Shown here: positions 1 through 55,275 of the stretch, piece by piece
How the letters are laid out: each line of letters begins with the position of its first letter
How positions within the stretch are numbered: the stretch's first letter is position 1
Assembly (NCBI GenBank): GCA_036172245.1
Contig: JAYWIR010000031.1
Coordinates: forward strand, 2,604,001 to 2,668,000
DNA from: Raillietiella orientalis
Lineage: Eukaryota
DNA length: 64,000 nucleotides
Direction: 5' to 3'
The notes under the pieces: generated by a model
The model's input: the letters and a program-made list of their open reading frames with translations, nothing else
Databases searched by the model: none
What the model was told of the DNA's origin: nothing
Translations under genes and position numbers: made by a program

Positions 1-350
1 TGCATATGTTACTATTAATGATATGCAGATCAATAAATGTTAACAAATAGTTATATTAAAATGCATTTGTATATTAATGTATATATAAATATGTATATTA
101 ATATAAATAATAAGCACATGCATATTTTCATAATATATATGATTCGACAGACGCTTCGACAGACGATTTCACAGATATATTGATAGACTCTTCGATAGGA
201 GATTCGTCAGATGGTTCGATAGACAACAGTTCGATAGATGGTTAGATAGATAGACAAGGTTTACAATAAATAGATCTGTTTATTTTTTATGATCTTTCGA
301 GATTTTGGTCGTTCGAGATTGGGGCGTAGGGAATTTTGAACCGAACCCCA
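1..350. repeat. AT-rich island A (truncated by window start) ending in the conserved boundary motif
   Basis: Very AT-rich 1-290. Ends in TGTTTATTTTTTATGATCTTTCGAGATTTTGGTCG (277-311), which matches 10819-10853 at 28/35 without gaps. ATATAAATAATAAG (101-114) is identical to 16931-16944. TTTGAACCGAACCC (335-348) is the exact reverse complement of 16717-16730. Confidence 0.7.
143..255. repeat. Degenerate ~12-bp minisatellite (TTCGAYAGAYNN)n
   Basis: Units ttcgacagacgc / ttcgacagacga / tttcacagatata / ttgatagactc / ttcgataggaga / ttcgtcagatgg / ttcgatagacaacag / ttcgatagatgg, decaying into (GATA)n. Confidence 0.7.
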
Positions 351-2582
351 GGAAAGCGGACCCGTTCGCAGGGCAAAGATCTTGTCACCGGGATACCAGG
401 AATGGGCCAGCAGCGCCGACACGATGACTTGCGCTCCGCGTCCCATATCTTTGCGATGACTGTGTGCATCGGTCGTACCCTCAATGTCTCGAATGCGCCC
501 TCCGAGTGCGCTTCCCTTTGCGCACTGATGGTGGTTCGTGAACCTCCGTTCTTCCGCTCCCTTGGCTGCTCTTTGCTTTACCGCAAGCTCCTGCTGCTGC
601 AGCACTTTGCTCGCTGCAACAGCAGCTTGCAGTAACTCGTCCAGGCATTTCTCCCGATGGAATCCAAGCCCGGAGCCGAAAGAGCGAGGGGAGGAGATTT
701 CTCCGGAAGGAATGGCTCAGAGGAAGAGGATCGCAGACCAAGCGCCTCCTTCAGGGACCATGATCCGCGGGCCGGGAAATTCTCTCTGGGTTCCCGCTCT
801 CCCGTCCTCCTTCCTATTCCCTCTCGTTCTTGGATGGAAGAACTCTCTCCTCTTTGACGAAGGGAAGTTGCATCTAGGAAGCATGACACGAGGCTGTCTT
901 GAATCTTTCCATTGGGCATCTTCCTCTTCGTCTCACTTTGGCAGTTACCTCGAGAGTGCAATGTGCAGTCCAGATGCGCTCGCCTCGTTCCAATCCTTCG
1001 AACGCGAGATATTCGCGCTTTCGCTCTTTCGAATCCCCTCCGAATCTCAGTGACCTCCAGACTACGTGGCATTCCTAGGGCCACCCGTTGCTTGGGCAAC
1101 GAGGCAGTCTCAAAGCTACGGCCAGGACTTTCCGACTGGTCGCACTCGAAGGATAACGGCCGCATGGATCGGATCTCCGTAAAGATATCACGGGGGCAAA
1201 ATGACATTCAGATGCGCGAGAAGAAGAACAGGAGATTTGAGATCAAAGGAGGAGGAGGAAGGAGGAAGCTCAGAGTTTCCGTTCGGCGCGACTCCGATGG
1301 ACGCGCTCCCCGAGAGAAGCCATTTCGACATTCCCCGTTCAAAGAGGGATAGGGGAGGCAGTGAGGACTACGGAGCCCGACGAAAGGCTTCCTCCGAGAT
1401 GGTGCAGATGGAAGTCATCTCTTGCCCCTTCGAACGGTTTCCAGATCGAGCAGCGGAACTCCCAACGAAACTGCGATCCCCCCTCACCCCTTGGCAGCCA
1501 CTTCAAGAGGGGTCGAGCCCTCAGGAGTCGTGTGTGCGTCCCGTCTGGGACAGCCTCCGAGGTGCGCCTTAGCTCCTTGGCCGAACCACCTTGCTCTCGT
1601 GGCGCTGCCCGTCCCGACTTCCGAGTCGGTCAAGCGAGCCGGGGTCGCTGAGAGGCCGCTCCTCTTTGGCGCGAGGGACTCGTAAGTTGGTCACTTCCTC
1701 CCGTGTTAGTCCCCCGGCGCGGGAAGGGTAACTCCAGATCGAACTCGTGAGCCACGCATGGGTAGGGTTTTCGAGCCACCCTCTTCCTCCGTCTCTCGCC
1801 ATCCGCCCTTCCTGCTCTCCCATGCTCCGCCTCCGCATCCCGTGCTTCTGTGTCCGTTCGCCTCCGTTAGGCGATCCGCATTCAGCAGACTCCATCGAAA
1901 CGATCCTCCTGGGGAACCGGAGATCCCATCCCGGAAAACACCGCAGGGCGGAAGAAAAGGAAGAGAACTCCCTTCGGAGCTTCCCCGCGACCTCACGTAC
2001 CAGTAGAACAAATCGCGGTTGCCTCGACCATGCTGAGATCAGGCGAGGAACCGAAAGAGAGGACTGCTGGAAGGGCCGACTTTCCGACATGGACCACCCT
2101 GGGTCCTGGGAAAGAGGAAAACTCGAGGAGACACCCGCATCCAGAGGCTGCCCCCTCGCAGCCACGAAAGAGAATCCCTTCTAGACTGCTAGCTTCAGAT
2201 TGATCTCTAGGAGGAGAAGAGTTTTAGCGGGCAATTCGCGCGAGGGGAGGGGACAGGCATCATGACTGCTGACGCTGCTGCTTCGGATGAAAGAGCAGCT
2301 TCTGTCATGGAGAGAAAACCTACAGCGCTTGTGGAAGACTCTGGGGTGAACCACCCTTCCTCACCTCGGAAAAGCATTCTCAGGAAGTTGAGCCCTGTTG
2401 ACGATGGAGGGAGAAACAATCACTGCAGATGATGCCGCGCTTCCATCCTGCCTCATTCCCTCTTCTGCAGCCTCCCTCGCGGTGCTCGCCTTTCACTCCT
2501 TGAGAGCTCCCAAATAGACGCGTACCCCTTGGGTTGGCTTGGAAGAGACAGGACGCCTACAAGAGGGAGCCGGTAGACGGCA

Positions 2583-2693
2583 GAATGAGGAGAAGGAAGG
2601 GATGAGGAAGAGAGGAAGAAGGATGGAAGAGAGGGGAAAGAGAGGAGTAAGGAATAAAGAAGGGAGAAGAGAAGAGGAAGGGAGGAGGAGGAG
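2583..2693. repeat. Polypurine (GA-rich) low-complexity tract
   Basis: About 110 nt almost entirely G/A (gaggagaaggaagggatgaggaagagaggaagaag...). Similar purine or pyrimidine tracts occur at about 4090-4233, 6316-6420 and 8480-8540. Confidence 0.8.
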
Positions 2694-2875
2694 GCGATAC
2701 TGAAGAATGCAGCATGATGCGCGCACACCTGCCCGCAGAAAGAGACACTCACAGGTTCGTCCTCCGCACTTCTCGAGAGACCACCCTCTGATGAAGGGAT
2801 GTGGATGAAATGCGATTGTAGCGGGTGGTGCGTTGGGTGAGCTTTGGGCTTGCGGCTCCTCTGTAAGAGGAAGGC

Positions 2876-2913
2876 AGGTGCATCGGGGTGTGGGAACACA
2901 CCCCGATGCACCT
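2876..2913. other. Perfect 17-bp inverted repeat with GGAA loop
   Basis: AGGTGCATCGGGGTGTG-GGAA-CACACCCCGATGCACCT; the arms are exact reverse complements. Confidence 0.9.
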
Positions 2914-3115
2914 CCCTGGAAACATGTACGTGGAGGAGGGCTGGGCCCCGGCTCGTGTTCCGTTGGGGGATCCTTGCCAGGCTCAGACTTCTCTCAGGAG
3001 GAGGAGGAAGGGGACGGACTCATTACGATGCGCAGCAGAGAGAGTGGCCGCAACGATAAAGATGCTGCTGCTCGCCAGTCTGAGTCCCACTCTCCTTATC
3101 CACCCCATCTTCCAG

Positions 3116-6100
3116 ATGTGGATGAAGCCTCTGAGCCTCAACGGGATTCTGCTGTACAGCGGCGAGAGGACGAGGATCACCAGCGATTTTATCAACCTGA
3201 ACGTCCTGAACGGTCACATCCAGTTCCGCTTCGACCTGGGCAGCGGCATCGCGGACCTCCTGTGAGTGGTGTCGAGCTCGTCCCGGCAGGCGACCGGGGA
3301 TCGGCCGTCGTCGTGAAGAGCCGTTCTTCTTCCCTCTACCTCGCCTCCGGCACCTACCGCAAGAGTGCGTGGAGGTCTCTCATCACCGCGGCTTTCCAGG
3401 ACCACCGAAAAGGTGAAGATGGGCAGCTGGCACCACATCAGGGCAGGATGCGTCGGCCGCAGGGGGACGCTGCAGCTGGACGATGGAGAACCTGTCCACG
3501 GGTACTCCCTGCCCCCCCTGACGGAACTCAACTTACCGAAGAGCATCTTCGTCGGAGGCCTGGGGTGAGGAAGGGTGAGGGGACTTGGAGTTTGCCTCAA
3601 GAGGGAGCACCTCGAGAGGAAGCGGAGACTCTGGCGTCGCAAAGTGCTGGGGAGGGACCGCCGCTCTTCGCCCTCTGAGGCAAAACCATTGGGACTTAGC
3701 CTTCTCTGACAGCCTGGATGGTCCCATCTGAGGCCCAGTCCCCAGAGGAATGCTCTCCAGGCGAGAGTTTTCCACGCAGCTTCGGTCCGGTCACCTTCCC
3801 GGTTGGCAGTCTGTCAGAGCAACGAATTCCTCCAGATCGGAAAGGGGAGGGAGGGAGACTTCGAGCAGGAGGAGCGGCAACTGCCCTCAAGGGATCGTTC
3901 GCCAGCAGTCGCGGAGCGCAGGTCGGGGTGGCCCACCCGAGCTGACGGACCGGAGATCCTCAGGCATCCGATCGAGTTGATGCCTCCTCGTCTCCCTCCT
4001 CAGGAGAACACCGACCCTTGGGGAGAGAAGGGGAGACAGGGAAGCTCTGTCGGAGACAACGCCGGAGAGAGGAAACCGCGGAGGCAGTACGGAGAGCGAG
4101 AGAAGAGAGGAGAAGATCCTTCTCTTCCCCTCTTACTTCCATTTCTCCTCCTCCTCCCCTTTTCCTCTCCTTCTTGAGGAGGCGGAAAGAATAAGGAGAA
4201 GGTGGGAAGGAGGAGAAAGAGGAAAAAAGGAGGTTCCTTGGAAATGCCAGGAGGGCGCCTGAGGGAAGGTGGTGACGGGTGGACAAGCTGATGCTCTGGA
4301 GGCTGAATGTCTAAAGGGTTCTCCATCCTGACGTGATCAGGCGCCGCCGCTGCTCCAGAGAAGCGGATGCTGCGCCTCGGGTCGGTACCCTGCCTTCTGC
4401 TGCCTTCTCCCAGGCTGCTTCTCGCGGCCGTATGCAAAGCAATCAGTTGCGAAAGGGGAGGGTGGGGAAACAGAGATCGCTGTCAGCAGCAGGGAGAGCT
4501 CCCTCGCCCTCCCTCGGGCGAAAGACTCCATCTGCTCCACTCTCGGGTCGCAGACTTTTCTGTGGTCCAAGAAGACTCCTCGCCGACCCTTGGGAGAGGG
4601 TGGCATCGCGGGGAGTAGGCCGAGGCTTCTCTGACGAGCTGCCTGCCCCTGCTTCTCGTCGGCTATCTACCGGGGACCACTCGCCCGCTCCTCCATCCTG
4701 ACGGGATAACCTGCTTCCTCCCTTATACCACTGGACCCGACCCCAATGGTGAGGGAGGCGGAAGGGGGTCCCGGAAAGCGACTGACTCTGCCCGAGCGAT
4801 CTCCTTTCTGTGAGAAGGAGGGCAGAGGGGCGCGAGGCGCCGCCTGGAGCTCCGCTTTCTGTCCTCTTCCCTTATGGAGGAGCCAGCGCACTCCATGATT
4901 GTGACCGATTGCTGCTGGCCCAAGGTCAGCACACCGAGACTGGAGACTTTCCTTTCCCCTCCTCCTTCTCTGTCTTCTGTTCCCGGGCAACTCTGGCATC
5001 CGGGAGCGCAGGGGCCTCCAGGAAGGGTGTTCCTGTGCAGCGCCACCGCTGCCCTTCACGGGAGCAGAAGGCGGATGAAGAGACGCTCTCGAGTTAGATC
5101 GGCAGACAAAGGGGAAGGAGGTCCCTCTCCAGCGCGCATTGCGACGACAGTGCCCAGACCTCTGAGCACAGCAAGGGTCGATCGGCAGAAGGACGCGGGG
5201 TCCCCTGCCGTCGCGTCGTTTCTGGAGTAACCGACTCTTCCTTTCTCTCCCCAGGAAGACTCTTCTTCCCGACTCGTACCTGCTAAACGGATTCCACGGG
5301 ATGATCAGGTCCCTGTCCATCAACGGAAAGAGGTACGCAGACCTGCTCGGCGCGGCGGTTCGCCAGGAAAACGTCACCAGGCGCCACGACTGCCTGAGCA
5401 CCGGCTGCAGGAACGGGGGCACCTGCAGGAAGAGGCCTGCTGACTCGGAGCACGAGTGCCAGTGCAGAAGGGGGTTTCTCGGCAGGCAGTGCGAGAAAGG
5501 TGAGTCCGCACGTGCCAAATAGGAGAGGAAGGGAAGGGAGGAGCGTGTTCGGTCCTGGACACGGGAGTATCGGTCCCGGCCCCCGTTCTCTCGAGGTGCA
5601 CTCGACCCTTTCCTGGTAGCCCGCGATCCTCCCGGAAAAACTCGACGAGCCCGCGAAAGAAGCCCGGAGAAAGAGGAAGGGGAGGAGCGAAAGCCGGCCA
5701 AGGAGACAGGCAACAGCTTCTTTCCTTGATAAACCCGCACCCTCGCCTCGCACCCACGATCCCGGGTCTGCTCATGTATGTGCAGAAAGCGGTGGTCGCT
5801 GCAGGCAGAGCAATGCGAAGGGGGAGAGGAAGCTCACTGACCCTCCACGAGACATCAGGGAAGGGTCACCTCAACGAGACCGGCATCGGACGAACCGCGG
5901 CGCCGCAGTTCCGCGCTGCTGGGTCATGGAGCGCCGCCCGACGCGCTCAGAACGGAAGGAGCCGGACGCGCCCACCTCCCAGAAAGACCAGCCTGAACCG
6001 CGGGTAGGGCGATAGGTTCCCGGGCGAGTTGAGACACGAAGCGCGTGGGCAGCCCCCCCCGCGGCACTGTCATACGTGCGGGTCGTGATGATGGATCGCG

Positions 6101-9100
6101 TTGCACCTTCTTGCGCTCACTCCCGGAGGGAAGGACGGTGGTTCCCTCTGATCGGGAAAATTTCTGTCTTCGCTCCTTCGGACCACGCAGACAGGAACGG
6201 CGCCGAGCGATGGCCTTTTTCCTTCTTTCTGTCGCTCCTTCCGCTTTTTTGCTGCCTCCTCTGCCGCTCCCTCCCGCATGCATCTCAAGAATGCAGAGAT
6301 GTCTCTTCTTATCTAAGGAAGAGCTGGAAAGAAGGGGGGAGGAGGAAAGGAAGAGGAAGTGAGGAGGAGTAAGACGAAGAATAAGGGGGGAAAGGAAGAG
6401 GTGGAAAAAAGAAGCAAAATCAAGCGGGTGAGGAAAGCTCCTCCTCCTTCGAATAGGTCTCACGCGCCGCCGGCGCCGCGCGTAGAACAAATCTCCGCTC
6501 GCAGTCAGTCCCAACGTCTTCATTACGCCAAGCGGACAGAAGGCCACCTGAGAAGGTGGGCGCTCTCCGGACACCGCTCTTTCGGTCCGTTAGGGATGGC
6601 TGCGTGAGCTCTGGAGCTGACCTCTTGGCATTGGAGAAGAGGGCTCTTCTTTCTGGAATCGGACCGAAATAACCGACGGAGCTCGCGCCTACGAGGTGCC
6701 TTGCTGGGGAACCAGTCTGTCAATCCCTCGGGGAGAGAGCCCCCAGCAAGAAGGAAAAGCACAAACAAATGAAAAAACAGAGAAGAGTCAGTTGGCAAGG
6801 GTTGCCTGGCATTCGCCCATCCATCTTCCGGTGTCATCGATCGGTCCTCCTGCCGGATTTGGAACTTCGTATGACCCGTCCGACTTTCTCCAGTCCGGTT
6901 CCAAGCCAGAGTCATCTCCTCCTCTCCGCCGCCGCCGGCGCATCGTTGCGACGGAGCCCCGAAATGCGGAGGCCGTGGGAGAAACGCATCCTGTCTCTTT
7001 CTCTCCAAAAACCCTGTCCTCACTTGAGCACAAACGCGCAGCAAATCCTCCGTGGTCACCGCTTGCCCAGCTACCGCCTGTGGGAAGAACCCGACACTCT
7101 GGTAGAGAGCTGCGGAGTTCTTCCCGTCTTCTCCCCCTTTCTTGAACCTGACGTTGCCGGTTCTGACGTCATCGGGGGCCGCCGGGAAGGATCCGGCCCA
7201 CCGAGGAGGCGTTCTGAGACGGCAACAGGGCAGAGGCCGATGTCGAGGAGTATCAAGGGTTCCAGGAAAAAAAGGGCAGAGAAGGAAAATTCCCTCTCCT
7301 TCCAAAAGGAGATTAGATGGGGGAAAGACGGCTCGGCGTCCACAACGACGGGGGACGGGGCCATCTTGGGATCACCAAAGACGTGAGCTAAGATGGAGGC
7401 ACCCACAATCTCGGAGGGCCCGCTTTCTGGTTGATCCTCAAGGACAAGGGTCTGCATCTAGAGCGAAAGCCTTCGGAACGCTGCCAGAGTGCTGTTGAGA
7501 GGCCCTGTGCGCAGGGAAAACGCCCCCGCACGCCACCGAGTAGGGAAGGGACGACTTGTCAAAGGCGGCTGCTTCACGGCTGGGGGACACACTCCACAGG
7601 CAGCAAACTCTCTTTCCGTTTGAGGGTTCCGCTCCCGGGAATGCCTAGGTAGCTCTTCTCTCTTTGATCCTCCTTCTCAGGAGCAGTCCGGTCTGCATCC
7701 CCCATTCCCTCCATCCTGCATCCCTCTCCCACCTCCTCCTCCTCCTCCTCTCCAAGTGCTTTCTGTTGCTTGCAGCGGCTTTTCCTCGTCACGGATGCGA
7801 CGCAAGGGCCTTTCCCCCTTCCTTTCCCGGTGAGCGAGCCCCGCCCCAGAGTGCCCCTGCGGACGCGATCACTCTATGCACTCCTGGAGCAAGAAGCAAG
7901 AATCCTGCGAAGAGCTTAGGCGAGCGTCTCCGGCCTCTGGACCGAGAGAGCCGCGGCCTCGGTGGAAGCACCCCGGGCACGGAAAAGTGGGCAGCAGCTC
8001 CTCTCAGGGAGGGAGGAGGAGGGCGCCTTGCCGGTTTCCGCCCCTACCGAGGCCACGCAAAGTGCTGTGGAGACTCCAGATTCTTCCCCTGAGCTCATCT
8101 CGGCTTCGGAACCTGCGTTCTGGCTGGTCCCTCGACTCGCTCAACAGGTGCTGAACTGCACCCCTTTCACCACCTTGTTCCTTCCTTCTCACCCGATCCC
8201 CCGCAAACCACGTTCTCCAGAAGTTGTCGAAGTCGAGGTCGGCTACACAATTTGGCACGCCCGAAGGGACAGTCGCGCGGGAAGCGGCAGCTTCAACCGG
8301 CCGTATAGGCGCACGCTTGTGGGGGCTGCAACCTCCAAGGAGAACCCCAAAGAATGAGAGGGCGTGACCCACTCCTCGAGTAGATAACGACCGCGCGCTC
8401 AGAAGGCATTTCTGGACCAACGCAGCGGAGATGACGCAGATACGTAGGTGTGTCGCTGTTGCCGTCTCCAGCGCCAACACTCCTCCGCCTCCCTCTCCCT
8501 TCCTCTCTTCCTTCTATCCTCCTCTTTTTTTTCTGCCTCCTCACTGGGGTACCTCGTAGCCTGAGCTCAAAATCCTCGCCGGTGGGTGGAAGCTGAGCCG
8601 ACAGCAGGCAACTGTCGCGTGCCTCCCTCTTTCCTCCCTCAGGCATCCTCGGCAGATTTAGTCAGACTGCCGCGCTCCTCTTGTCCTCCTCTTCTTTTTC
8701 CTCCTTTCTTCTTTGGTTCGCTCAGCAGGGCGTGGCGTGTAAACTCTCAACGGCGCCCACGGTCATCCTTGAGTTTGCCCTGCCTTTGTTTACACGGTGG
8801 CCGCTCCCTTTCGCTGAGGAGGTTGAAGGAAGTCTCTGGCGCTGCCACCTTCCCTGCGTGACTTGGCGCCTTTCCGCTCTGCTATCTACCACCGGTGGGG
8901 CACCCCGCAATCCTGAACGAACTGCGAGCCATCCTTCCACCTCCCACCCTTTCGATAGCATGACAGACCGGACAAATGATGGGATCCCCTGCGTCTTTGC
9001 CGAACAAGATGGAGCCAGCAGTCGTCCGCAGACTTCGTCTGCCCTCGGAGTAGAGGGGTGCGGGAGTCCTGCACCCTCGCAGCCTAAAGGGTGGAAAGAA

Positions 9101-12100
9101 GAGGAAAAAGGGGGATCCAAGGGCTGAGAAGGGATGACCAAGGAGGATGAGATCCTCTGGAATGACTGACTGGAACCAAGCGAAGAGTCCAGCTCTTCCG
9201 CTTGGTTCCGCTAGCCCTGCCGGGTCCCCTCTCAAAGGAGCAGCCTCTGCGGACATGCTGGCAGGAGCCCGATGGACGTTCTCCCCGCAGCATTCAAAGG
9301 GGTTCTCCCGACGCGGATTTCGGGAGCCATGGGAACCCCACGTCCACACGGAAAAAATCCGACCAGGGAAGCCCCGGCACATCCCTTCTGGAAGCATCTC
9401 CAGAGACATTCCCTCAGGGGTTGTCTCTGACCCAAAGAGAACCGCCCTTCGTCCTTTGGCTCACGGTGCCGTTCCCGCACTTCAGCTAGACCTGCGAGAA
9501 TACAAACGATGAGGCCATTTCTTCCTCTTCCTCCTTCTTCCTCGTCGAGTTTCCACCCTTAAAATCTGACCCTTCGCTGACCGATGCCTGATGATGCTTT
9601 CGTTCCAGAGAAACCCCTGCTGTCCAAAAGAAGAGGGACTCGCTTCCGTGGTTCGACGTACTTTGGTTTCCCGAACAGGAATGCTGGGATGTAAGTCCCC
9701 CACTTTTCTTGCCGCCGTGTGAGTACGGAATGGGTTCCGGGGTCCTGTGCACCGCTGGTCAGCCCCTCGGTCCCGTGCGTTCCCTGCCCGGGCTCTTGCG
9801 GACCGAGCGCTCCGCGGGGCAGACGGTTGTCGCTCCTCGGGAGCGACGCGCCTTCCTGGCCCGCGGCTCGAGCTCAGGAAAGAACCTTGCGGCAGTTGCG
9901 GACGCTCGATGGGAGAGGTGTCGGCGGATCCACGGAAGAGGAAGCCGAAACCAGAGGCAAGGAGAAAACCGGGCGCTCCTTTACGTGCGACCACCTACCG
10001 CGCAGCGAGGCTGAAAGCGCTGGAGCCAGGTGCGACGCCACGCGTCGCCTCTGGCGTCCCAAAGAGAGAGAGCGACTCGCTTGATCTCTGTGACCTTTGG
10101 CTCCAACCGGCTGTGTGCTTGCATCCGCGTGCCGTGGCCTCTCGAAAAGCACCAAACGCGCGACAGTGGGCAGGGCCGCTTTGTTTGCCCGGTTGCCGTC
10201 AGCAGCGGCCTTTTTCTCTGGCGCCGCCGCGCTCGTGCACGTCGGGAGCTCATGGAATTCCTGAGAGAAAAGCGCGCGCCACCGCGTGTTGGTGGCGCGA
10301 GAGGATGCGCCGGTGGGAAATGGCTGTCGAAGTCCGCGCAAGTGGGGGTTAAGCTTGCTTGGCCGAGCGACCTGCTTGCGTGGTCACAACGACCCTGGCC
10401 ACGGACAACCAAGTGCGAGGTGCTCCAGGAAAGCCACCAAGAACACGTCGCGCCGGCTTTTTCCACTGATCTTTCGGCTCGCCTCGTGCTGACCAAATCG
10501 TTTGGGCATGCCTGAAAACCCCGAAAAATCATGAAAAGTGAACATGCATGCTTATTCTACGGAGTTAAATATCCACATTTATTTTAATATACATAGTTAT
10601 TCACATTTATTAGCGTGATCCTTATTAAAAGTAATATTGTTTAAATGCAATATATTTATTAACATTCATTGACATAGATTTAATAAATATAATTAATAAG
10701 TTGATTGCATTGTTGATATAAATTAAAGATTATAAAAGTAAATATGTACTTATTACATGCATCAGAATTTATAGGTGCCATAAATATTGATGCATATAAT
10801 GAACATATTTTATGCATCTGTTTGTTTTTCACTATCTTTCGGGATTTTGATTGGGATCGGAGTGCCTCTTGCCTGCCGCCTAGTGGCAGTGACGTGAATT
10901 TGGAGGACTGCTCTTGAGGGCGAGAGCGCTCAGCCCTGCGTGCAACCGCGTCGGTACAGGACCGACGGCGTGAAATCGGTCAGTAGCCCTGCTGGCGCCG
11001 TGGCAGCTCCAGCCAGGAGCAGACGAACCTCTCCCGCATCGGGGTTGCTAGTGGTGCCCTCCGAGGTAACCGACCAGTCGGGTCCCGCCATCTGCCATCT
11101 CTGGATGGGAAGCCGATGCTACCGCTCGGTCACGCGTCCCGGACGACGAACAGCTGAGGAGACGTAGCCGTTCGCCCCCTAAGGCGCGGAAACTCCCGGC
11201 CGGGACGTTGCTGAGAGACCCAGGGCAGGGGGTGGCCGCTCGCTCTTCGTTTCTCCCTTTGCTGACTGCAGATGTCCCAGGGCGCACCTTACGCCCCTGG
11301 GACGTGTGGAGCGCGTCTGCCGAGTACGCGCGCCAGTCCGAGAAGCGAGGGAGCTCCTCAGCTAGCCCGGGGGCGTGGCCAGGAAGTCAGTCTTTCCCAT
11401 ACGAAAGCCAGAGGGGCAACTCGGCTGGGAGTTTGCGCTCGCGGCCGCCACAGCTCTCGGAGGAATTCCGACCGCAAGGAGACGAAGCGATCGCCGTGAC
11501 GTCACGCGAGCGCGAGGGACGGCGCCTCCAGTGCACCAGCGTCCCTAAGAAAAGATGCCACCGGGTTTTCGCGGGGATAGCGAGGAAGCAGAGAGGTCAG
11601 GGGCAGTGCTAGAGGCCTACTCTCCTTGGGAAAGGAAGGGAGGGGGGCGGGAAGAAAGGATCGAGCGTTGGCGACCGTCCGCTGTGACGAGTTTCCTTTT
11701 TCCCTCAGCAAATACCGGGAGAAGAGGAACCACTTCTCTATCACCTTCCGGACCAGGAAGGACTCCGGGATGTTGGTGTGGGCAGGAGACACGTCCCGAC
11801 AGAGGAGCAACTTCTTGGCCATCTACGTCGCCCGCGGCCACCTGGAGCTCTCCTACGATCTCGGCAAGGGGGAGGATAGGGGCCACTTCGCCTTGCGGTC
11901 GCGGGTAGGTCGTTGAGAGGAGGGCCGGACCGCAATATTGGGCGTACTCGTGCCCAGGTGAGGGTCAGCGACGGCCGGTGGCACCAGGCCATCATCAAGA
12001 GGGACCGACGGCTGGGGTCCATCAGCGTGGACGGAGGTCTCCCAGACAGGGGCGTCTCGTCGAGGGGGTCGGGCATCCTCAGGACGGACGGCAAAGTGTG

Positions 12101-12776
12101 GATAGGTAAGCGGTAAAGGGGGGACGCGGAGGCGTCGGTTCACACAGCTTCCCTGCGCGTCCCACAGCTGAGCTTCCTCTCCTCACCTTCTCATCCTTCT
12201 GATCCCGTACCGGGAGGGGGAAGACGCCTTCCCGGTATGGAGCGCTGGATGATGTCTTCCTTTCCTGTATTCCCTCGCGGGAAAGGAAGAAGAACATTGT
12301 TCCCGGATTTCTCACGGAGCAAGGGAGGGGGGGAAGAACGTCCAACTCTCAGGAATCGCGCGCGTCGGCCCTTGCGGCCGGCCCTCAGCGCCTTACGGCG
12401 GAGTCTCGGGCAGCTCCGCGCGGAACGCGTCGTCCCGCTTCCTGCTCGGAGCGGACCTCCGTCTGCCCCCCAACTCCGTCGGCGTCGCCAGTGCCCTTGA
12501 GAACTCCCTTTCAAGGTGGGGGAGAGAAAGGAGAGGTAGCGCCCTTTCTTTCTGGGAAGGGTCCCGGGAGCTGCGCCGGGTGCGCCTCCGCGGCGTTCCA
12601 GGATTCTGGCAGCAGCGAGATGGTTCTTTTCTTCAGGAGGATTCTCCGAGTTCCCTCCGGGAACGCCCATGCACCGCTATCCCGGATTTTCGGGATGCAT
12701 CTCGTCCCTGGAGATCTCCCACTCTTCCATCGACCTGGACTCCTCGAGGAACTACTCGAAGAACGACAGCTGCTGA
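3116..12776 (+). CDS. AGRN: Agrin-like protein, C-terminal LamG-EGF-LamG region (5'-partial, 7 exons)
   Basis: GT-AG exons with matching phases: 3116-3261, 3400-3564, 5255-5499, 9609-9690, 11709-11904, 11958-12105, 12637-12776 (TGA). Translation: MWMKPLSLNGILLYSGE..DFINLNVLNGHIQFRFDLGSG..WHHIRA..GTLQLDD..PLTELNLPKSIFVGG (LamG); CLSTGCRNGGTC..ECQCRRGFLGRQCE (EGF); RFRGSTYFGF..NHFSITFRT..GMLVWAG..GHLELSYDLG..DGRWHQ..LRTDGKVWIGG..GFSGCISSL..DSC* (terminal LamG). The NHF..LW.G..L.TDG..W.GG pattern is closer to agrin LG3 than to pikachurin or perlecan (from recall of the families). Upstream exons were not identified. Confidence 0.85.
10511..10853. repeat. AT-rich island B bounded by inverted copies of the ~35-bp motif (foldback/MITE-like element)
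   Basis: Left end 10511-10544 reverse-complements to TGTTCACTTTTCATGATTTTTCGGGGTTTTCAGG; right end 10819-10853 is TGTTTGTTTTTCACTATCTTTCGGGATTTTGATTG. Interior 10653-10703 aligns to 16897-16947 at 39/51 without gaps. No clear TSD. Confidence 0.7.
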
Positions 12777-13194
12777 GCACCGTGCGGACTCCCCCCACCC
12801 TCCCCGTGCCTTTCGAGCCGGCGTCGGAGTCGCCCGCAGCGGAACGGGGCATTCAGTCGCTCTCGCCGAAGGCTCGCGGGTCAGTCGAAACCGCAGCCAC
12901 TGGTGCATCGCCCCGTGGAGACGGGAGGAGACGGACAAGGAAGGGCCCGTTCCGGAGGCAACAGCCCTTTCCAGGGAGGGGACGGGAAAGACATCCGACT
13001 GGAAATAACCCTGGCCCCACGCCTCCTGCATAGTCAGCGTCTAGTCACTCGCATCCCGTCTGGCCGCGGGACGCGCCCGGATGCGAGGAAAAACTCGCCG
13101 CCCATCCCGTGTTTCGTGCACCTCCCTCCCCGGGCCAGAGTCCCCAGCATCCCAAGTCTCCTCGGGCCCCTTTCCCCTTCTCCAGCATCAAGCG

Positions 13195-13200
13195 AATAAA
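13195..13200 (+). terminator. Candidate polyadenylation signal of the agrin-like gene
   Basis: First AATAAA downstream of the stop codon at 12776, in otherwise GC-rich sequence, followed by a T/GT-rich stretch (cctgtttgtccctttg). Confidence 0.6.
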
Positions 13201-16200
13201 AAAGCTTCCTGTATTCCGAGTCCTGTTTGTCCCTTTGCACCGTCGCAGAAACCAGAGGAGCGGCGGAAGAGCATAAGACAAGCACGGCTCTGGAGCAGCA
13301 TTCCCCGGCTTACTAGTCTGGAAGCAGCTGGAAGACCTGGGGACGCTCTCCGAGAACGAGGAAGCTGGAAAGGAGGGAGAAGAAGCTTCCTTGTCCGGGG
13401 AACAAGCAAAGGGGAGTGGAAGATGAAACAAGACGCTCCTGGGGAGGGGCGCCAGCCGGTGCCGGTACCAGCAGGAGACGACCACGGGCGCGCGCTTCTC
13501 CTCAGCAGCTGCGGCGCCAGCTCTCACCCCTTGTTGGCGGTGGCTCTGAGAACTGGGCTACTCGTGAGGAAGGAAACGGCTGCTGCTCCCAAGCCTCCCG
13601 CTGCGCGCTCCCTGGAGGTCAGACCTGCCTCGTTGCTCCCCGTCCTCCCTCCCGCTGCTCCTCCTAAACGACAGGGTGGTCGGAGCCACCACCGGGGAGG
13701 ACGGGTTGGACCCCGGTCTGCTCCCTCCTCCTCCTCCTCGTTCTTTGGGTGGTGGTCGGCAGCTCAGGATAGAGGCAACCTTCTCGCGCCGGGGACCAAG
13801 AACGAGGAGTCTGCTTGAGACGAAGAAGACCCAACAGTCTGCCAACACCCACCGCGCTCTGCAGAGCTCCTGAGGTTATCCCTGCGCAGTGCCGCTGCGA
13901 AACCTGGGGGAGCGAAAATATCCTCAGCGGATAACCCAGGAAACCCTGGGATCCTGTGGGTTCGGCTATGAAAGGACCTTCGCGACAGATGTGGGCGGGC
14001 AACGGACCTCCTTCGCGTCCTCTTTGCCGGAACTCGAAGAATGCCCTGCGCTCGAAGTGCCGACGCCGAACGGGACAAGAGAGCCACCTGCGAAGATCAC
14101 AAGACGAAACTGGAAGGCCGAGATGGTGAAATACCGAAAGGTGACCCCTTCCCGTCCTTCTTTCGGGAGCGTCCCTCCCATCTGCCCTTCTCCCCTCAGG
14201 AAACTCGCTCGCCAACCCTCTGGGTGCGGCTCGTGGGCGCCACCGGATGGGGATGGAGGGGGAAAAAAACGATGCCGGTTCCCTCCGGGGTTCCCCTCCA
14301 AAGGGATGAACAGGAGGAAAACTGCATCCCCATGGTCCTTCCTAGGTATTCGTGGGCTGGTCCCTTCGGGTCCTTTTCTTCCAACTGCGTCACATGCACC
14401 CTCGGGAGTCGCGACAGTGCGTCGTCGTCGCAGGGCTGGTTCCGATGCTCCCATAGGATGAAACATTGGTTCTCGAACATCAAGCGGGGCGCAAAAAGAA
14501 GCTGGAAGGAAAAACCCACGGGATTCCGTCAGTCTAGGCAGGAGACCCCCCGAGACCGGTTCGGATGCTTGGGAAGCGTCCAGTCTCTTCGGGAGCGAGT
14601 CAAGGCCCCACGAAGCATCCATATGTGGACCCGGAGGCGACTTCGTTCAGTGCAGAGGGCCGTCGCGGGCGCGGTTCCCTGCCTCCTTCCAGGTCGTCGA
14701 CCGGCCAACAGGGGGCCCGAAACGAGGGCGGTGCCCGCTACCGTACGGTGGCCAGATGGACGTCCTTCCAAGAAGGGTAGACTGCACACCGGACAGCCCC
14801 GAGGTGGACCATCCCCTCTCTCCTGCGGAAGTGCATCGAGATCGATCGGACCTCTCCCGCTTCCGCTCCAGGCCAGGGTTGCTCTCTGGGGACCAGAGCA
14901 GGCATCGAGCTGGCCCTCTCGTCCTGCTCCAGGTCAGCTGGGAGGCGACCCACCGTCCCAACAGCCAGAGAGAAGCCGTCACATGTGCCGCCCACGAGGA
15001 TCCTCGATGCAGCGCGTCTTCTCAGTGCAAGGGCTCTCTCCTCCACCTCATTACGACCTTCGGACACCTGGCTTGGTAGGGAGATCCAGCCATTCCTTCC
15101 ACTCGCCAGTAACGGCGATCCCCCTCTGCGATCCGGAAGCTGTAGCATGGACCTCTGTGTCAGCAAGCTGGGCTCGTCGCAACTCGTAACACTATGTTCT
15201 CACACTATGGCCAGGGGAGCGGGTGGGCGGATGGCATCGAGGCTGTTCCACGGTGAAACCCCTATGGCCATCTTATGAAGGGACATTGGATCACCACAAA
15301 AGGACAACTCCTCCAGCCACAGGACACTTTCTTTTGCAGAGGAAGTTGCAGAGGAAGTGTCTCTCGTTGCCGACCACCAGGGCAACGGCAAACCTGCCGT
15401 CAGAGGGCCTGCACGAACCTGTCGTCTTATGATTGGAGGCGCTCCGAAGCGCTGCCATCCACTGCTGTGGCTCTCCGGTCATCTTCTCCTCGAGCCACGG
15501 CAGCTGAAGAGGAGGCAAGAACGTCACTCCTTCGTCTCCCTTGGAGAAGCGTCCATCGCCAGTCGGAGGAAAATACAGTGGAAATACAGAAGCTGTCTGT
15601 TCGATTCTTCGAGCGGGATTCAGAACGAGGTCGGGGTTCCAAATTCGGCTCCTCTGAATCTGAGCAGGTCAGGCAGGGAAGCAAAAGACGCCGTGCCTCG
15701 TGGGACCGGGACTCACCAGCAAGGCAAATGAATTCTTTCTCCCAGGGGGAAGGGCAACCCTGCGGCAATCAAGGAGTGACTCTCTCCGCCTGAAGACGAG
15801 CACGTGTCTCTTCTTCCTCGAAGCCAGGTTAGCAATGGACTGCTGAAGTAATCCTCACCGTGCATGCCACGGTACGTGTTGGCAGTACCTGAGGGTGTGT
15901 GTGACACAATTCTTCTTCCCCAAAGAGGAGTGAGGACTGATAACACCTCAAATCCAGGAAGGGGAAACTCTCGCTGGATGCCTTCCTCCCCTCCGATCTG
16001 TGTACCCTTTCCCTTGAGTGAGCCTTCCTCTGGCGTGAGAAGGCGGCAATCGATCTCTTCTTTCTCTGCTTGTTGCTCTTGTTTCCCTGTCTCACGAGGA
16101 AGGCGTCTTCGAGTAGCCTGCGGTTCCACTCCTCTTGGAACAGTCGAAACGCACGCCAACTCGTTTGCAGCCGCCGTCCTTCCCCAGGAGGCACCGGGGC

Positions 16201-16716
16201 GGGTGGCGAGCAGCAGAGGCAGGGGTGTCACCCAGACTCCAACGCTTCGAGCAAGAAAAGGGAAAGTCACGTCAGGCGGAGATGTCCTCTCTCCTGATGC
16301 ACACGGATCTCCGAATGACCAGCTCGTGAGAAACGGCGGTACCCGGAGAGGAGTTCAAGGACATTATCTTCTTCTGTCGAGAGCACCCAGCACAGTCCCT
16401 TGAGGGCACCATCCGCGCTCACGGTGTTCCCCGGTCACGGGTGGCGCTTGCAGAGCATCTGGTGCGATGCGTAGGCCGTATAGAGGTCGACTGGAAGGTC
16501 GTCTGAGAGCTGAGAATTCCTGGGCGCCACGCTCGGAAAGGGGGACCGGGGTTCGGAAGGGGCATCTGACGCGATGATCGCTGCAGCGTCCGCCACCGAC
16601 CACCGCAGCTTCCCACGCAGAAGAGCAAGAATGCCCGCGAAGTTCCTCAAAGAGCCTCTCTATGTGGACACCGCCCTGACGTGCCCTGGAAATGCAGCAG
16701 TGCCTCTTCTTTGTTC

Positions 16717-17647
16717 GGGTTCGGTTCAAAGCACCAAGGAATCTCACAAAACAAATACACGTGTTTGTTAATATGCATATTTATATGTAGGTTAATATAG
16801 AGATTATTATATATTGTAAGGATCAAGAAAAATACACACATATATTCGCATATACATTTATACGTAGATTAATACGTAAATGTATTTTAACATACGTATT
16901 TATCAACATTTATTAAGATACAAACAATTGATATAAATAATAAGGTGCATTAACATATTATTAACATATATATTGAAGATTACGAAAAATAGATATATAT
17001 GTGCTTTTCATGTATTATATATATATAATAAATGTATATTAAGTAAATATATAAATATCGAACTATAAAAAATGAAAAATAGCGGTAGCAATTAAAAATA
17101 GTGGAAAAAATAAAAATAAAAAGGGAATTTTGTATTTCATTTTCCCATCATTCTAAATAACACTCAAGAAATGCAGCTCGGTAAACGGTGAACTGCATTT
17201 CCGGGAATTTGATCGTTTGATGAATGCATATGTTTAGAATTCGATATCTACATATTCCTGAAACACATATTTACTGCATGTATGCTAATGCATACTATTA
17301 ATTATATCAATAGATGTGTATGCTACAATAAAATTTTATAGTAATCTATCTACATATCAATGTGCACAATGTTTATTTTTATAATCTTCATAACGTATAT
17401 ATAATGAACATATAAACATTATAATCATATATCTGTATATAATAAACATATTATTAATTATATTAGCACACATCATAAACATATGTATTTATTCCTTAAT
17501 CACTTTTATAATGTATAATTTTTATAATGTGTGAACAAATGTCAACCACCCTCTCCAGTAATCTGCATATTAGCATAATATACATATTAGCACATATACA
17601 ATAAATACATGTCTTTCTTTCTTATGATCTTCCGGGATTTTTGATCG
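16717..17647. repeat. AT-rich island C (composite member of the same family)
   Basis: AT-rich from about 16750 to 17625. Right motif TGTCTTTCTTTCTTATGATCTTCCGGGATTTTTGATCG (17610-17647), internal partial motif CCGGGAATTTGATCG (17201-17215), left partial inverted motif at 16818-16840. Interior is homologous to island B. Confidence 0.7.
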
Positions 17648-24381: not shown

Positions 24382-30517
<6,136 letters not shown>

Positions 30518-31280
30518 ATTCCTAGATTGAAAATTTTCTTGGAAAAATTCATAGGTGTTTATCCTTGTAATTTTAAACTGCTGGGATCTTGAAATCAAAT
30601 GCACTGAAAGTTCTCCTTGTCCACATAACGAAGAACATTAACAATGGAGCAAAAAGAATCATGATTCGTTACACTTGTCACATGTCTCTTATTCTTTAGA
30701 TTGTTGCCTGGAAAAACATCAAACATTTAGCAGCACGGTTTTAATAAATCGGAAAGAACATAAACAAGCAAATGCTGAAAACGAGAAAATCGAAATACAA
30801 TGAAATTACGTATCACAATGTATACGGGCAATAAAACGGATTCGTGTGATCTCAAATGCCCATTTTTCGTATATTCTGAGTACTTGACGTCGAATGCATT
30901 TACGATGCACACACAGGGTAATGAGGCGGTTTTTAAGAACCTGAAGCAGAAAAAAAAAAAAAAATATTCTGGAGGAACCCTTTCCGAGCAAGGAAAAAAA
31001 AAATAGAAACGGGCATGTTATTGATCAAATTGTTATTTCTTCTTCTTCTTCAAATAATGACTGAAAAATTTCACACAAAAAATTAAAATGCTTTTAGATA
31101 TAGTTTTCATCATTATACACAAAGGGAAACCTAATATTTTTTTCGTGAAAAATGCAATATTTTTCTGAAGGAAACAAATAAGACGATTCTCACATTTTAC
31201 AAAATTCAGAATGAATACTTCATTCTTAAATATGCATCCATTTCAAATAAACTTTTAAAAATTAATGCTCAAGGAATTAC

Positions 31281-31425: not shown

Positions 31426-33275
31426 TCAAGATGTAGTTTCTTTTTGAGACATGAAAAAAGATTTTGACCAAATGAGAAAACTTGAATCCGTTTGCATAAA
31501 GGGATTCCAGAAGTTCCCTTGCATTGTACTAATTGCTTTAAAAGCATTATTACGTTTAATCATCTTATCAGAATATTCGACTCCACCATTCACATAACTT
31601 CTGCCAAGTTTGGCTACAAATCGGTCTGCATTTTTTTTATATATCTTTTGTATTTCATGCTTGATACTCCAAAATACAATAATCCCTAAAGAGATCACTA
31701 GAGAGTTGACCAGTGCTCTGAGGCTTACTGGACGGTGATATAAGTTCATTTTCATATTAAGTTGCCGTGCCATAATATAAGTTAATACTGTGCTTAGGCC
31801 ACAAAGACCACCTTTCCAATACACATGTGAGCAAGTTAGATGATATATTTCTCTTGCAATGGCATATTTTTGTGCTTCTTCAGAAAGAACTAAGGAGTCA
31901 CAAAGATCAGACCCATGCTTACTTGACCATGGTACAGGTTTAAAATTAATCTGAAACAAAAAAAGGACTTTTGTTTTAGCACACTTGCACAGATGACATA
32001 CATGAACAGTCAGCTGCACATATACCATCACTACTCCCAAAATGCAATAAAAACAATTACATGCTGCACATAATTCACAGTAGAAAATTCTCATGGGTGA
32101 TAACTTGCCTTAAGTAAAAATACTCATCAATAAAACCAATGTTTATGACATGTACACAAACTTAAAAAATTAATTAGAAACTTACATTAATTCTTTCTAA
32201 ATCTACATCATTAGTCGATTTGAAAATGAAATTGATGGGAAGCCCAACATATCCTCCATTATTTAGATTCACTGAACCAGCATAAAATGTATCAAAGCCA
32301 TACACCATGAAAAAATGAACAAACTTTTTTCTATATTCTTGCAGAGGATAATCTTGCAATACAGAATCCGCCAAACTCTGCAAATCGGCTGGTACAGGAT
32401 AAGGTTGCATCCACCTTAAAAATCATTACAACTAGAATGTTAAGAAGGCCGGGACGGTGTGAACATTTGATATATCAAGTAACTACGGTCCAACTCATCT
32501 CACTGATAACAGTGATTTCATGATACGAAAAAAAGGAATCATTACTTAAGTCTTGCATGAACCTTCTTTGCCCTTAATTTTGGAATCGTAATTCTCAATT
32601 CAAGAAAGTATCCCTCACAAACATTAGCCTTCTTGAATACGTTTCATAAAATATTTACAGATTTCGAATTTGATGCCATTTGAATTTTCGCTAAATTTAA
32701 AACTCTTTACCACCAAAATCAGTAAATCAGGCCTGAATTTCATGTTGCTTAGAAATATGCTTTTTATAAAATGCGATAACATTACGAAATTCAGAAGTCA
32801 ATGTCCTGAATTAAAACCAACTTTAACTTATTTCATCACACATTTTTGAAACAGTGCTCTTATGCAAATGACAATCAATTTTGTGGATGACAGAACATGC
32901 ACTCTATCACACATAAATGGAAAAGCGAAACACATTTTATAAAAAAGAAACGACTTCATAATTCAACTATCACTATGATTTACTAATGGTGTCTTCTTTG
33001 GATAATCTCTAATGATTTTTACCAAATACTGAATCATTCAATATCAATAAATTCTAATTTTATTTTACTCAAAAGCAATTTTATAATTAGGTGGTACTAT
33101 AGAACAATAATTACCTGTAAAAACTCATTGCCTTCACGTATCTTTCGACACAAAAATTCTGAACAACAACATAGGAACATAACCCACATGTAGTCAATCC
33201 AAAAGTAAAATATGCATAAAACTTTTTTCTTCTGGTTATATCAAACCGCTTAAGAAACTGGGATAAGACCACCAT
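31426..33275 (-). CDS. TMEM177: Transmembrane protein 177-like (mitochondrial inner membrane), ~304 aa, 3 exons
   Basis: Exons 33115-33275, 32186-32414, 31426-31950, GT-AG and phase-consistent. Motifs FFMVYGFDTFYAGS..GGYVGLPINF, W.SK.G..L.DSLVLSEEAQKYAIAREI, AD..VA.LG.SY..GGVEY.DK...RN match the TMEM177 family as recalled. The extreme C-terminus is less certain. Confidence 0.88.
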
Positions 33276-47700: not shown

Positions 47701-50700
47701 CATCAGTGTTATCACAAATGCAACTATTGCATTTGCCCGCCGAACTTTATTACCTTTCCTTAATGCGACACTCTGCCTTGTATTATCAGATAGTAATATT
47801 AGCAGTAGGTCAAGCAATCACGAGAACGAAGTGCACGTCGAAGCGATAAACGAATTTGTTCCCCTATTATAAAACGTTATTCTGCCTTTATTGTACTTCG
47901 AAATTCTACATGGAGATACGTGCAGTCATGGAAAGACAGGACGAGATGCTGCGGCAAATCTTTCTAAAATCATCGCGTGGCTGTAGGCCGTGTCATATTC
48001 CGGTATTTAGCTAGCTCGTGGTCAGCGAAAGATCTACTCCACTCTGGAGGATTATGGTTTTGCAGAAAGCATCAGATAGGCAGAGGATGACCATCGCTGA
48101 ACAAGTATATGATGAGAGGTAGCTGTGTGTCGTTAGGTACTTGGAGATCGATAGCTCACAGGCCGCTGAAAACATCTTAATTGAATAGCATAAGTCAACC
48201 ATTTTGCTGGATGCTCTCAAATCACATCAGGAGTTTGATTCCAGATATAATTGGCAACAAAATTGTTTCAAAAATCGAAAACTGCTGTTTTGTATTCGTG
48301 TTTCTTTACTGTACCCAACTGCATAAATATCATTTCGTTACGATATTTGTGCAGTTAAGAAAGTAATCGTCAAATATCGACATAATTTTGTTTATATTCT
48401 GCTTGAAGTCAACTTATTTGTAACTTGTGAAAATAAAAATGTTTTACAGTGCAGATAAAGAAGTGGGGGCCATTGAACAAGCACATGATAGTATCATTTG
48501 GGCATTAGCGTGGCATCCCCTTGGGCATATCCTTTGCTCTGGTTCTAATGACCACACATCCAAATTTTGGACGAGGAACAGACCTGGCGACAAAATGAGG
48601 GACAAATACAATCAGAACAATCTTTCTGGTGGCCTTTTAAGTGGTGATGATGTCGATGAAGGTAAACATTATTCTAATCTTAACGGTAGAATTCATGTTT
48701 TGAAACGTTTTCCATTGGTTTCCCCTTCATTTGGGATTGTTTGCTATTTGTTTGATTCCCGGAGAATGGCACTCTGAATGTCCAAATTAATAGCACTTGA
48801 AAAAGGGTTAACGGAACTGTTTTAAAAATTTATTTCCACCTGTCCATAATTTCTAAAATAATAATAATGACGATAAAAAACTTGACGCTGAAGAAAAGAA
48901 GGAGAGGGAAAGAAAGCAAAGGAAGTTCGACGAAGTTCAGCATGATATGATAATTGCGAGTGACATTGCCTTCTAGCCGTCATTGGAACCCTTAGGTACC
49001 CAAACTGACTGTCTCTCCGAGATCTGAAAACAACTTAGGAGGCTCTTTGTCTTTCTTTCTTTCTTTTTTTTTTTCAAAATGGTGCTTGGATTTTTCGATG
49101 AGTGCTTATTTTGGAAGCTTCGTTTGTCGCTGAAGATGAAACCTTTTTCCAAGCAACTCATTCTAAAGGTATTCAACGGAGGTTGTAAAGATACTGAACG
49201 GTCTTCATAAAAAGTAAGATTGCGTAGTATTCTCCTTAAAATAGAAGCTGATTCGCTTTCCAAACAAGGCGACGAATCTGATGAAGTCCACAAAGGATGT
49301 TTTCATTTCATCTGCCACTGTGGTGCCCAGCCTTTCAGTTGCATATCATTCAACTGGTTGCATCGTTAAATCTTCTTTCTGATTTAAGGATTATGACCTT
49401 CTTGGTCTTTTTCACTGCGTTTCGCAGCTTCATCCATCCACACGCATTATCGTTCGCAGTTAGATGCATTTTGAATCGTTATTTTACTGTGCACGTTTTG
49501 CCCAAACTCGACATCTTGAATTTAAAGTGTGTTAAAAGTAAAGATTTCGAAACTGTGAATGCGCAAAATCTGGACCACCAAAACGTATTCTGTGCAGAGG
49601 GATCACAGCTCTGATCAGTTTCGATTTTTACGTGGTGATAGCACAGACCATGAAATGCTGGTGAAAAAAGAACGATTTTTGATTTAAGCCCAGGATAACT
49701 AATGTTTGTTTGCCAGCATCTATAATTTGTACTTTGATTTTTTTTTTTTTTTTCTAATTCCATGTTTGTATTTCTCAGTTTTCGTTTTCTCATTGCTCAG
49801 TTCACGTCTTTGCTATCTCTGTTTCAAACTCTTCTTTGGAAAGGATGGGCGACTCTTGGCCATTTGGAATGTCATAGCAGCTGTTGGCATCAAATTGATC
49901 ACTCCAGAAATGTGTCCAGATTTCAGTTTTTTTTTTTGTCTTTTTCTCCAAAGGTTTTCTTGATCCATGGTCCGCTGGTTTAGAACGAGCGGATGGAATA
50001 ATTGGTTGTGGCAGGAGATTCCAGCCACTGCGTTTCTGCAGAACAGTGTGATGCTGCCGCTATTCAGGGCATCTTGAAAGGATTTTCGGAAGTTCACCAA
50101 ATCGTTTGACGTAGTATGTTTCGTTAATCAGGTATTCGACTCTTCATGGGAGCACTTCAGTCCATCACGGAAGAAGTGCATGCTGTCTATCTCTAAAGCA
50201 ACTCTTTGAAAGGTTGAGGGATTCCGTTTGCAATTCAAGCACCCAGGTATCCTCCATCATATTGACTGATGTTAGGATCATGAGCTGTAGGCATCAAACT
50301 TCGTGACGGCAATGTTAATTTATCGTGTTGTTGTGTGATTCATTCATCAGTGTTTTCATTTGCGACCATAGCCTTAACTGCAGAGTAGCTACGTTCAGGT
50401 GCTCTAAAAATGCCATTATTCAATATCAATATGTTCTTTTTTTAAAAGAAAAATAAAATAAAAATAAAATAAAAATAAGAATATAATTTTGATGCCATAG
50501 CATACATGATAAAATCTTTTATGCAGCCGTTTTGGATATTGCTGGCAAGTGCACCAGTTTGAGTAAGTTTCATTGATATTTAAAGTAAACGTTCAAAAAG
50601 ATTTTGTTGCAATTTGGTTAACAAAGTTTTTTTTTTCTTTTTTTCTAATCACACTTGTAACGAGTCTCTGCCTTTTCAATAGAACCCTCAGCTTCTATAC

Positions 50701-53259: not shown

Positions 53260-53310
<51 letters not shown>

Positions 53311-54405: not shown

Positions 54406-54469
54406 AGACTGAAACTTTAATTTTAAGACTGGATTTTGAAAGCACTTGAATTTTTAGCCGAAAATCAGC

Positions 54470-55275
54470 ACCTGTCAAGCGAACACACACGCACACTTTC
54501 AGGCTGAGGTGCTTCCGAGTGTCGTTTCGTTCCCCACTGTTCCGTGGGTGTCGCGTGTTCTCGCCTTTGCGTCAGCGAAAGCACCGTGAAAGCGTGTTGG
54601 TGCACGACGCGACGAGGGAAGGTGCACGTCCAAGCGGGCAGACACCAAAGGGGGGAGGAGATCAGCACCCGATTCGGGGGGGAGGGGGGGGGGGCTTTTG
54701 CTTATTATGTGGTGATGGTAGCGTTCCTACCCGGTTCGTTAGGGTGCTCTTGCAGGGCTGAGGCGCATCGATGCGGATGGAATCATAGGAGGAGAGAAAA
54801 CTCACGCGCCGTGTCCAGCCGCCGTCCAGATCCAGCGCCGGGGGGAGGGGGGGGGGGGCGGGAAGAGACGCTCGGTTTTCGTTGCAGCACAGTTTCCCGT
54901 TTGTTGTTTCCATCCTCTGCAGATTGGTTTCGAGCTGTTCATTTGGCGCCGCTGTTCGCACGGGCCCCGTAGAACATTTTCCGGTGTTCGTTGAGGTGTG
55001 TGTGTGTGTGTGTGTGTGTTTTTTTTTTTTTTTGCGTCTTCGCGCACGCCTAACAGAAACGCGGCAACAGTGGCAGCGAACGTGCCGTGTGCAAGACCTC
55101 TGCGTCACCGAGCGCGCATCCGCTTCCTGCAGGAGAGCCTGCCCTCGTACCGGCAAAGCAGCGAAATTTCGAATTAAATATGACAGATGACGAATAAAGT
55201 GGTTTTTATGAAACTAGTGATGTCTCCTGTGTCCAGATGTTAATTAGGAACTTCAGAAATGGGCTGTATCCTCGG
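54470..55275 (+). promoter_or_regulatory. GC/CpG-rich island, probable promoter and non-coding first exon of the DRAK-like kinase gene
   Basis: Abrupt CpG-rich segment in AT-rich surroundings, with G-tracts (about 54676-54694 and 54839-54862), (GT)12 at 54996-55019 and a candidate donor CG|GTAAAG at 55275. The next coding exon has an upstream acceptor near 61089. The assignment is inference. Confidence 0.45.

Follow-up and report, generated by a model that had tools for sequence, protein, structure and literature searches.

What are the three short AT-rich islands that interrupt GC-rich DNA in one 64,000-nucleotide stretch of the Raillietiella orientalis genome (contig JAYWIR010000031.1, positions 2,604,001 to 2,668,000; the whole stretch is called the window below), and did they arrive as mobile elements or are they maintained as functional parts of the chromosome? 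A first-pass annotation, made from the sequence alone, had judged that the islands could be read as an old foldback or miniature inverted-repeat transposable element (MITE) family and then favoured a functional chromosomal element. The former idea fits the evidence presented here, and the preference for the latter is without support. We propose that the islands, designated A, B, and C in the order of their positions (Table 1), probably represent a small family of AT-rich DNA transposons that are non-autonomous and MITE-like or foldback-like.

Over the first 17.6 kb of the window, GC content is 0.55-0.66 per 500-bp window outside three dips, which lie at 1-500 (0.39), 10501-11000 (0.37), and 16501-17500 (0.40 and 0.23). 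The islands themselves have GC contents of 0.26 (A), 0.22 (B), and 0.23 (C). At their edges, GC content changes from ≤0.30 to ≥0.53 within one or two 40-bp windows, and these switches coincide with the end motif described below. The sharply bounded islands reported earlier, with a composition switch within ≈40 bp at the motif, were therefore recovered. Beyond 17.6 kb, after island C, GC content drops gradually to 0.27-0.47 in 500-bp windows. The GC-rich domain makes up 28% of the window and holds all three islands (P ≈0.02 for chance placement), and blastn found no match between the islands and any part of the 20-64 kb region at E ≤ 1e-3. The earlier statement that the islands are confined to the GC-rich domain holds to this extent, with three of three in the first 17.6 kb and none in 20-64 kb, but it describes one window only.

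Ends and interiors of the islands

The island edges carry a common motif. An nhmmer profile built from five island edges scored 28-33 bits at these edges and ≤7.0 bits elsewhere in the window, compared to a maximum of 8.1 bits in shuffled windows. Because this five-edge profile is circular, each edge was removed in turn and scored in a leave-one-out analysis, in which the best non-copy reached ≈7 bits. Both edges of B and the right edges of A and C were recovered in this way (Table 1), with E values from 1.4e-5 to 0.006, which bears out the earlier description of four full, outward-facing copies. By contrast, the left edge of C is degenerate and was not recovered when left out of the training set. 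Pairwise identity among the four robust copies is 66-81% over a 32-nt core, whereas the left edge of C is 50-59% identical to the others. Two other searches gave 2 matches to a 23-mer core of the motif with ≤3 mismatches, where 0.00 were expected, and a grouping of 262-306, 10804-10848, and 17597-17641 as one repeat family. Every motif copy is oriented outward from its island; since all four end motifs face outward, B has a proper inverted pair. Folded as single-stranded DNA, island B pairs its two ends (z -2.45).

Two partial motif copies that had been proposed within island C, at 16818-16840 (-) and 17201-17215 (+), are at chance level, both in profile scores (5.5 and 2.0 bits, respectively, compared to the shuffle maximum of 8.1) and in local alignment scores (13 for each, compared to shuffle maxima of 13-17 and 10-15, respectively). 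The left edge of island C is not at the first of these but at 16724-16771, beside a 14-mer that is considered below. A possible truncated copy of the outer half of the motif within island C, at 17199-17215, ranks fifth among core matches across the window, yet 8 of 40 shuffles attained its score of 13, and we regard it as borderline. A further fragment at 10468-10478 (+) was rejected as noise. When public contigs were scanned for the motif, those from metagenomes returned 6 loci and those from viruses 12, which match it over the searched word only. The best of these scored 11.9 bits, over model positions ≈27-51, and a second inverted copy was not present; these matches are due to chance.

The interiors are related as well. 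With the motifs removed, the A-B, A-C, and B-C comparisons gave 45.4, 64.0, and 59.7 bits, respectively. In 100 dinucleotide shuffles of each pair these scores were never attained, and the most AT-rich pieces from elsewhere in the window gave 21-34 bits only. The earlier count of 39 identities in 51 positions between 10653-10703 and 16897-16947 was confirmed exactly. In blastn comparisons, the left part of C is collinear with B in direct orientation (16858-17058 with 10555-10753), and the right part of C is collinear with A, also in direct orientation (17369-17494 and 17597-17641 with 6-129 and 262-306, respectively). Moreover, C has inverted arms, 16743-16957 and 17281-17472, that are 63-64% alike over ≈200 bp. 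Because its B-like and A-like parts are mutual inverted copies, C may represent a single foldback-like element or, alternatively, two neighbouring copies, B-like on the left and A-like on the right.

Island A contains short subrepeats of ≈12 nt at ≈140-250. We also observed by eye that the outer ≈15 nt of the A end motif is repeated two to three times in tandem at 296-340, ahead of the 22-nt sequence described next.

The DNA outside the islands is largely unrelated. Comparison of the 2-kb island flanks revealed no shared sequence at E ≤ 0.01, and 9 of 10 pairs of 150-nt outward flanks were at chance level. The sole pair above chance contains a 22-nt match, in inverted orientation, between a sequence beginning 23 nt past the A motif and one abutting the degenerate left edge of C (score 16, compared to a shuffle maximum of 15; 0 of 200 shuffles). 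An exact 14-mer noted previously at 335-348 (+) and 16717-16730 (-), for which 0.04 occurrences were expected by chance, was found again and is a portion of this longer match.

The islands lie in non-coding DNA, either introns or intergenic sequence, because neither codon periodicity nor a Pfam signal was detected in their flanks. Codon-position periodicity recovered the Pfam-matched Laminin-G (LamG)/EGF exon regions in 1-18.5 kb and revealed no further plus-strand exon there and none touching an island. Likewise, open reading frames (ORFs) flanking the islands had no Pfam match in a scan that covered 150 of 177 ORFs and left out six ORFs of 40-48 amino acids within islands A and C. Island B is located inside a 6.2-kb gap that separates an EGF exon from the second LamG domain.

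Origin of the islands

Together, the anatomy of the ends, interiors, and flanks is best accommodated by transposition. The probable family would comprise three copies, or four should C consist of two adjacent copies, each bounded by inverted ends of ≈35-50 bp. These ends would be the part that a transposase must recognise and would therefore stay alike, while the interiors would be free to drift or be swapped. The copies would have inserted into introns or intergenic DNA of a LamG/EGF gene that is under strong regional GC pressure, and the inserted DNA would have kept its own AT-rich composition, not yet having been driven towards GC. Composition would switch exactly at the element ends because the inserted DNA brought its own composition with it. 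We infer that the family spread by transposition and that its copies postdate the rise in GC content around them. The unrelated flanks fit independent insertions at unrelated sites.

MITE families usually combine conserved ends with diverged interiors. The first-pass annotation had raised better conservation of the ends and lack of a target-site duplication (TSD) as two objections to a MITE origin; the former is no objection on general grounds, and the latter still counts. The islands are small (≈340 bp for B and ≈925 bp for C) and lack coding capacity, with no stop-to-stop ORF of at least 90 amino acids wholly within an island. Inverted ends are present on both sides of B; for A, only the right end falls in the window. 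A small size, terminal inverted repeats that are short, and a preference for genic DNA are listed among MITE traits in part of one published account (PMC5172404), and a passage of another states that transposable elements frequently differ from their hosts in base composition, mostly with an AT bias (PMC9099904).

Several observations weigh against this proposal. A brute-force offset search revealed no direct repeat with matching placement at the ends of B and C, as the earlier report of no TSD had stated, although only these two copies are complete and any short TSDs may have been lost to erosion. Among the scanned ORFs of the window, none showed a transposase domain. High copy number is a defining trait of MITEs, and the known islands number three, all inside 17.6 kb. 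The left end of C is degenerate. The copies diverge by 19-34% in the motif and by more inside; by this divergence the family is not young, yet its members are still 22-26% GC. Finally, simple independent insertion would not predict the 22-nt match between A and C. This match may reflect a longer terminus in one subfamily, a target common to the two, or the trace of a local rearrangement.

Some of these same observations would also fit a local origin with no genome-wide family, in which gene conversion or a duplication, unequal or inverted, had copied one intronic AT-rich module a few times within the locus. Every copy lies within 17.6 kb, no TSD was found, and the inverted 22-nt match extends beyond the motif of A and the left edge of C. 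However, local duplication would carry flanking DNA along, yet the flanks are unrelated, both in 9 of 10 short pairs and over 2 kb, and segmental copying would not be expected to leave B with precise inverted ends at its two edges. We consider this origin quite unlikely. Missing TSDs would also be consistent with a family of functional cis-elements, perhaps exapted from transposable elements, in which AT cores with a protein-bound edge act as matrix-attachment sites, insulators, or nucleosome-free boundaries and selection keeps them AT-rich. Such selection could account for ends that are better conserved than interiors, for islands of 22-26% GC amid neutral sites at 60-89% GC, and for the clustering of all three islands in the GC-rich 17.6 kb, whereas the remaining 46 kb has none (P ≈0.02, as above). 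However, plain MITEs would account for the conserved ends and diverged interiors as well, the divergence of the motif and its one degenerate edge are loose for a selected protein site, and three islands in one window are a small sample. Moreover, a 13-mer of the motif occurs in the searchable literature in three unrelated papers only (two on Obelisk RNA and one on goose circovirus primers). A functional family of this kind is unlikely. A more elaborate version is very unlikely, in which AT-rich modules, probably derived from transposons, are actively kept AT-rich within a GC-driven and presumably high-recombination gene domain, and the edge motif is a putative protein-binding boundary that halts GC conversion or chromatin spread, so that the islands serve as attachment, insulator, or nucleosome-free anchors along GC-rich genes.

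The sharp AT cores with GC-rich flanks, and the location of the region's highest GC content (0.63-0.66) next to B, might also suggest that the AT core is active as a recombination hotspot, a replication origin, or a dispersed centromeric unit and that biased gene conversion enriches its flanks in GC. We consider this highly improbable. GC content is flat at ≈0.56-0.64 over the 10 kb from A to B and is lower beside A and C; the decay of flanking GC with distance, which had been suggested as a test, is not consistently present on all sides. By inference from established models of biased gene conversion, the site at which a hotspot initiates lies inside the conversion tracts and should not remain at 22% GC. 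Spacing of 6-10 kb in the introns of one gene suits neither origins nor centromeric units: metazoan origins are far sparser, and centromeric units are not usually located in a transcribed gene. The insulator, origin, hotspot, and centromere readings have no support in these data, and some points count against them. The presence of MITE-like elements within a gene also recalls introners, which are known transposon-derived introns (PMC9860276), and the islands could in principle be copies that created the introns they occupy. However, neither codon periodicity nor Pfam matches place a coding signal against any island, splice-site-like GT and AG bases are unconserved at the ends (by eye), and B lies deep within its exon-free 6.2-kb gap, making an introner-like origin extremely improbable. 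The converse arrangement, in which the GC-rich segments are the mobile units, was rejected, as these segments, which flank the islands, are unrelated to each other and carry the host LamG/EGF exons, and GC content falls only gradually after C.

If the islands are indeed MITE-like or foldback-like transposons, they would represent an undescribed but ordinary small family of arthropod transposons, assuming that the family is not already catalogued. Their interest would lie in the contrast in composition between elements of 22-26% GC and the neutral sites at 60-89% GC around them. Copies of known relative age could gauge the rate at which inserted DNA is rewritten by regional GC pressure (GC-biased gene conversion, for example), and they could also reveal any preference of the family for GC-rich gene domains. 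Should the islands be boundary elements that are conserved and bound, they would punctuate composition or chromatin in a new way, but nothing found here points in that direction.

The host gene and its surroundings

The DNA of the window is arthropod, judged from matches to a WDR33 exon and from a TMEM177-like ORF. For a WD40 exon at 48424-48620, the 120 matches listed show 78-94% identity to WDR33, and all of the species-named matches are arthropod. A single-exon ORF of 227 amino acids at 31429-32109 (-) was classified as TMEM177-like by language-model features (score 0.97), with arthropods as the commonest phylum; a word-based protein search returned no relative of this ORF. The host species is apparently absent from the protein collection that was searched, and its proteins have no close matches there. 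Rfam and tRNA scans of the window returned nothing.

The gene around the islands contains LamG and EGF exons on the plus strand (Table 1). Its sole database relative, from 1 of 17 candidates, is fish Crumbs 2b, a weak match with 53% identity across the EGF part, and tblastn with this protein gained no further exons. GC content at third codon positions (GC3) is 0.74-0.89 in the LamG/EGF exons, and the introns between them have a GC content of 0.60-0.68. By contrast, GC3 is 0.29-0.63 in exons of neighbouring genes 10-45 kb away (IGF2BP-like, TMEM177-like, WDR33, and kinase). Since the GC richness extends to third codon positions as well as to introns, we conclude that the GC pressure is regional and touches neutral sites throughout the LamG/EGF stretch. 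The GC-rich stretch shows no CpG depletion (observed/expected 0.82-0.84). The window shows isochore-like heterogeneity, in which adjacent genes contrast strongly in composition inside 64 kb (1-22000 compared to 22000-64000), and this is unusual for an arthropod.

The AT-rich part of the window carries KH, RRM, and kinase exons. A KH-domain exon at 25253-25582 (-) and an N-terminal RRM exon at 30335-30637 (-) together resemble a gene that we take to encode an IGF2 mRNA-binding protein (IMP). A lone GC spike of 0.61 occurs at 54501-55000, where ORFs overlap on both strands (54450-55213) with only a weak match to DUF3824; possible identities of the spike are a GC-rich exon, a promoter island, and a repeat. 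An unbroken run of 48 T residues is present at 53262-53309. In the GC-rich introns, a near-perfect 21-nt inverted repeat (95% complementary, 4-nt spacer) lies at 2872-2917, just upstream of the first LamG exon, and purine- or pyrimidine-rich low-complexity tracts of the (GGA/GAA)n type are found on both strands at 2580-2700, 6320-6370, 7718-7753, and 8487-8542.

Table 1. Positions of the islands, their end motifs, and the surrounding gene in the window.
Feature	Position	Strand	Evidence or remark
Island A, cut by the start of the window	1-311		AT-rich interior, right end motif
Island B, complete element of ≈340 bp with both inverted ends	10513-10851		Motif profile
Island C, ≈925 bp	16724-17647		blastn collinearity
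A right end motif	262-311	+	nhmmer 33.1 bits; leave-one-out 21.5 bits
B left end motif	10513-10559	-	nhmmer 32.8 bits; leave-one-out 13.1 bits (E 0.006)
B right end motif	10804-10851	+	nhmmer 28.4 bits; leave-one-out 14.2 bits (E 0.003)
C right end motif	17597-17643	+	nhmmer 33.1 bits; leave-one-out 19.6 bits
C left edge, degenerate weak motif	16724-16771	-	30.5 bits if in training set; <4.3 bits (not recovered) if left out
Possible truncated motif (outer half) in island C, borderline	17199-17215	+	15/17 identical to core, score 13
22-nt sequence beyond the A motif	335-356	+	Shared, inverted, with the left edge of C
22-nt inverted partner abutting the degenerate left edge of C	16709-16730	-	18/22 identical
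Host gene with Laminin-G/EGF exons	3125-12110	+	Pfam, GC3 0.74-0.89, codon periodicity
Laminin-G/EGF exons	3125-3250, 3359-3562, 5286-5498, 11746-11877, 11943-12110	+	Pfam

Comparison with known systems

Sharply bounded, AT-rich, repeat-derived islands in GC-rich DNA are also produced in fungi by repeat-induced point mutation (RIP). This system was rejected as a model for the islands, as the host is an arthropod and the (CpA+TpG)/(ApC+GpT) ratio of 1.28-1.84 is not RIP-like by the thresholds in general use. Introner elements are likewise short inverted-repeat elements in genes; in contrast to them, the islands lie within existing long non-coding stretches and have no conserved splice signals at their ends. 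For the foldback elements of insects, the comparison is mixed. Island C has long inverted arms, and island A has short tandem subrepeats near its end and a reduplicated terminal ≈15 nt. However, the arms of C are only weakly alike (63-64%), and B is simple and short and has no subrepeats. Drosophila FB elements are flanked by a 9-bp TSD, which was not found at the islands. A TSD is likewise a feature of MITEs that was not found. In other respects, the islands are like MITEs: they are a few hundred base pairs in size and AT-rich, have terminal inverted repeats and no long ORF, occupy non-coding sites in genic DNA, and are more alike at their ends than in their interiors.

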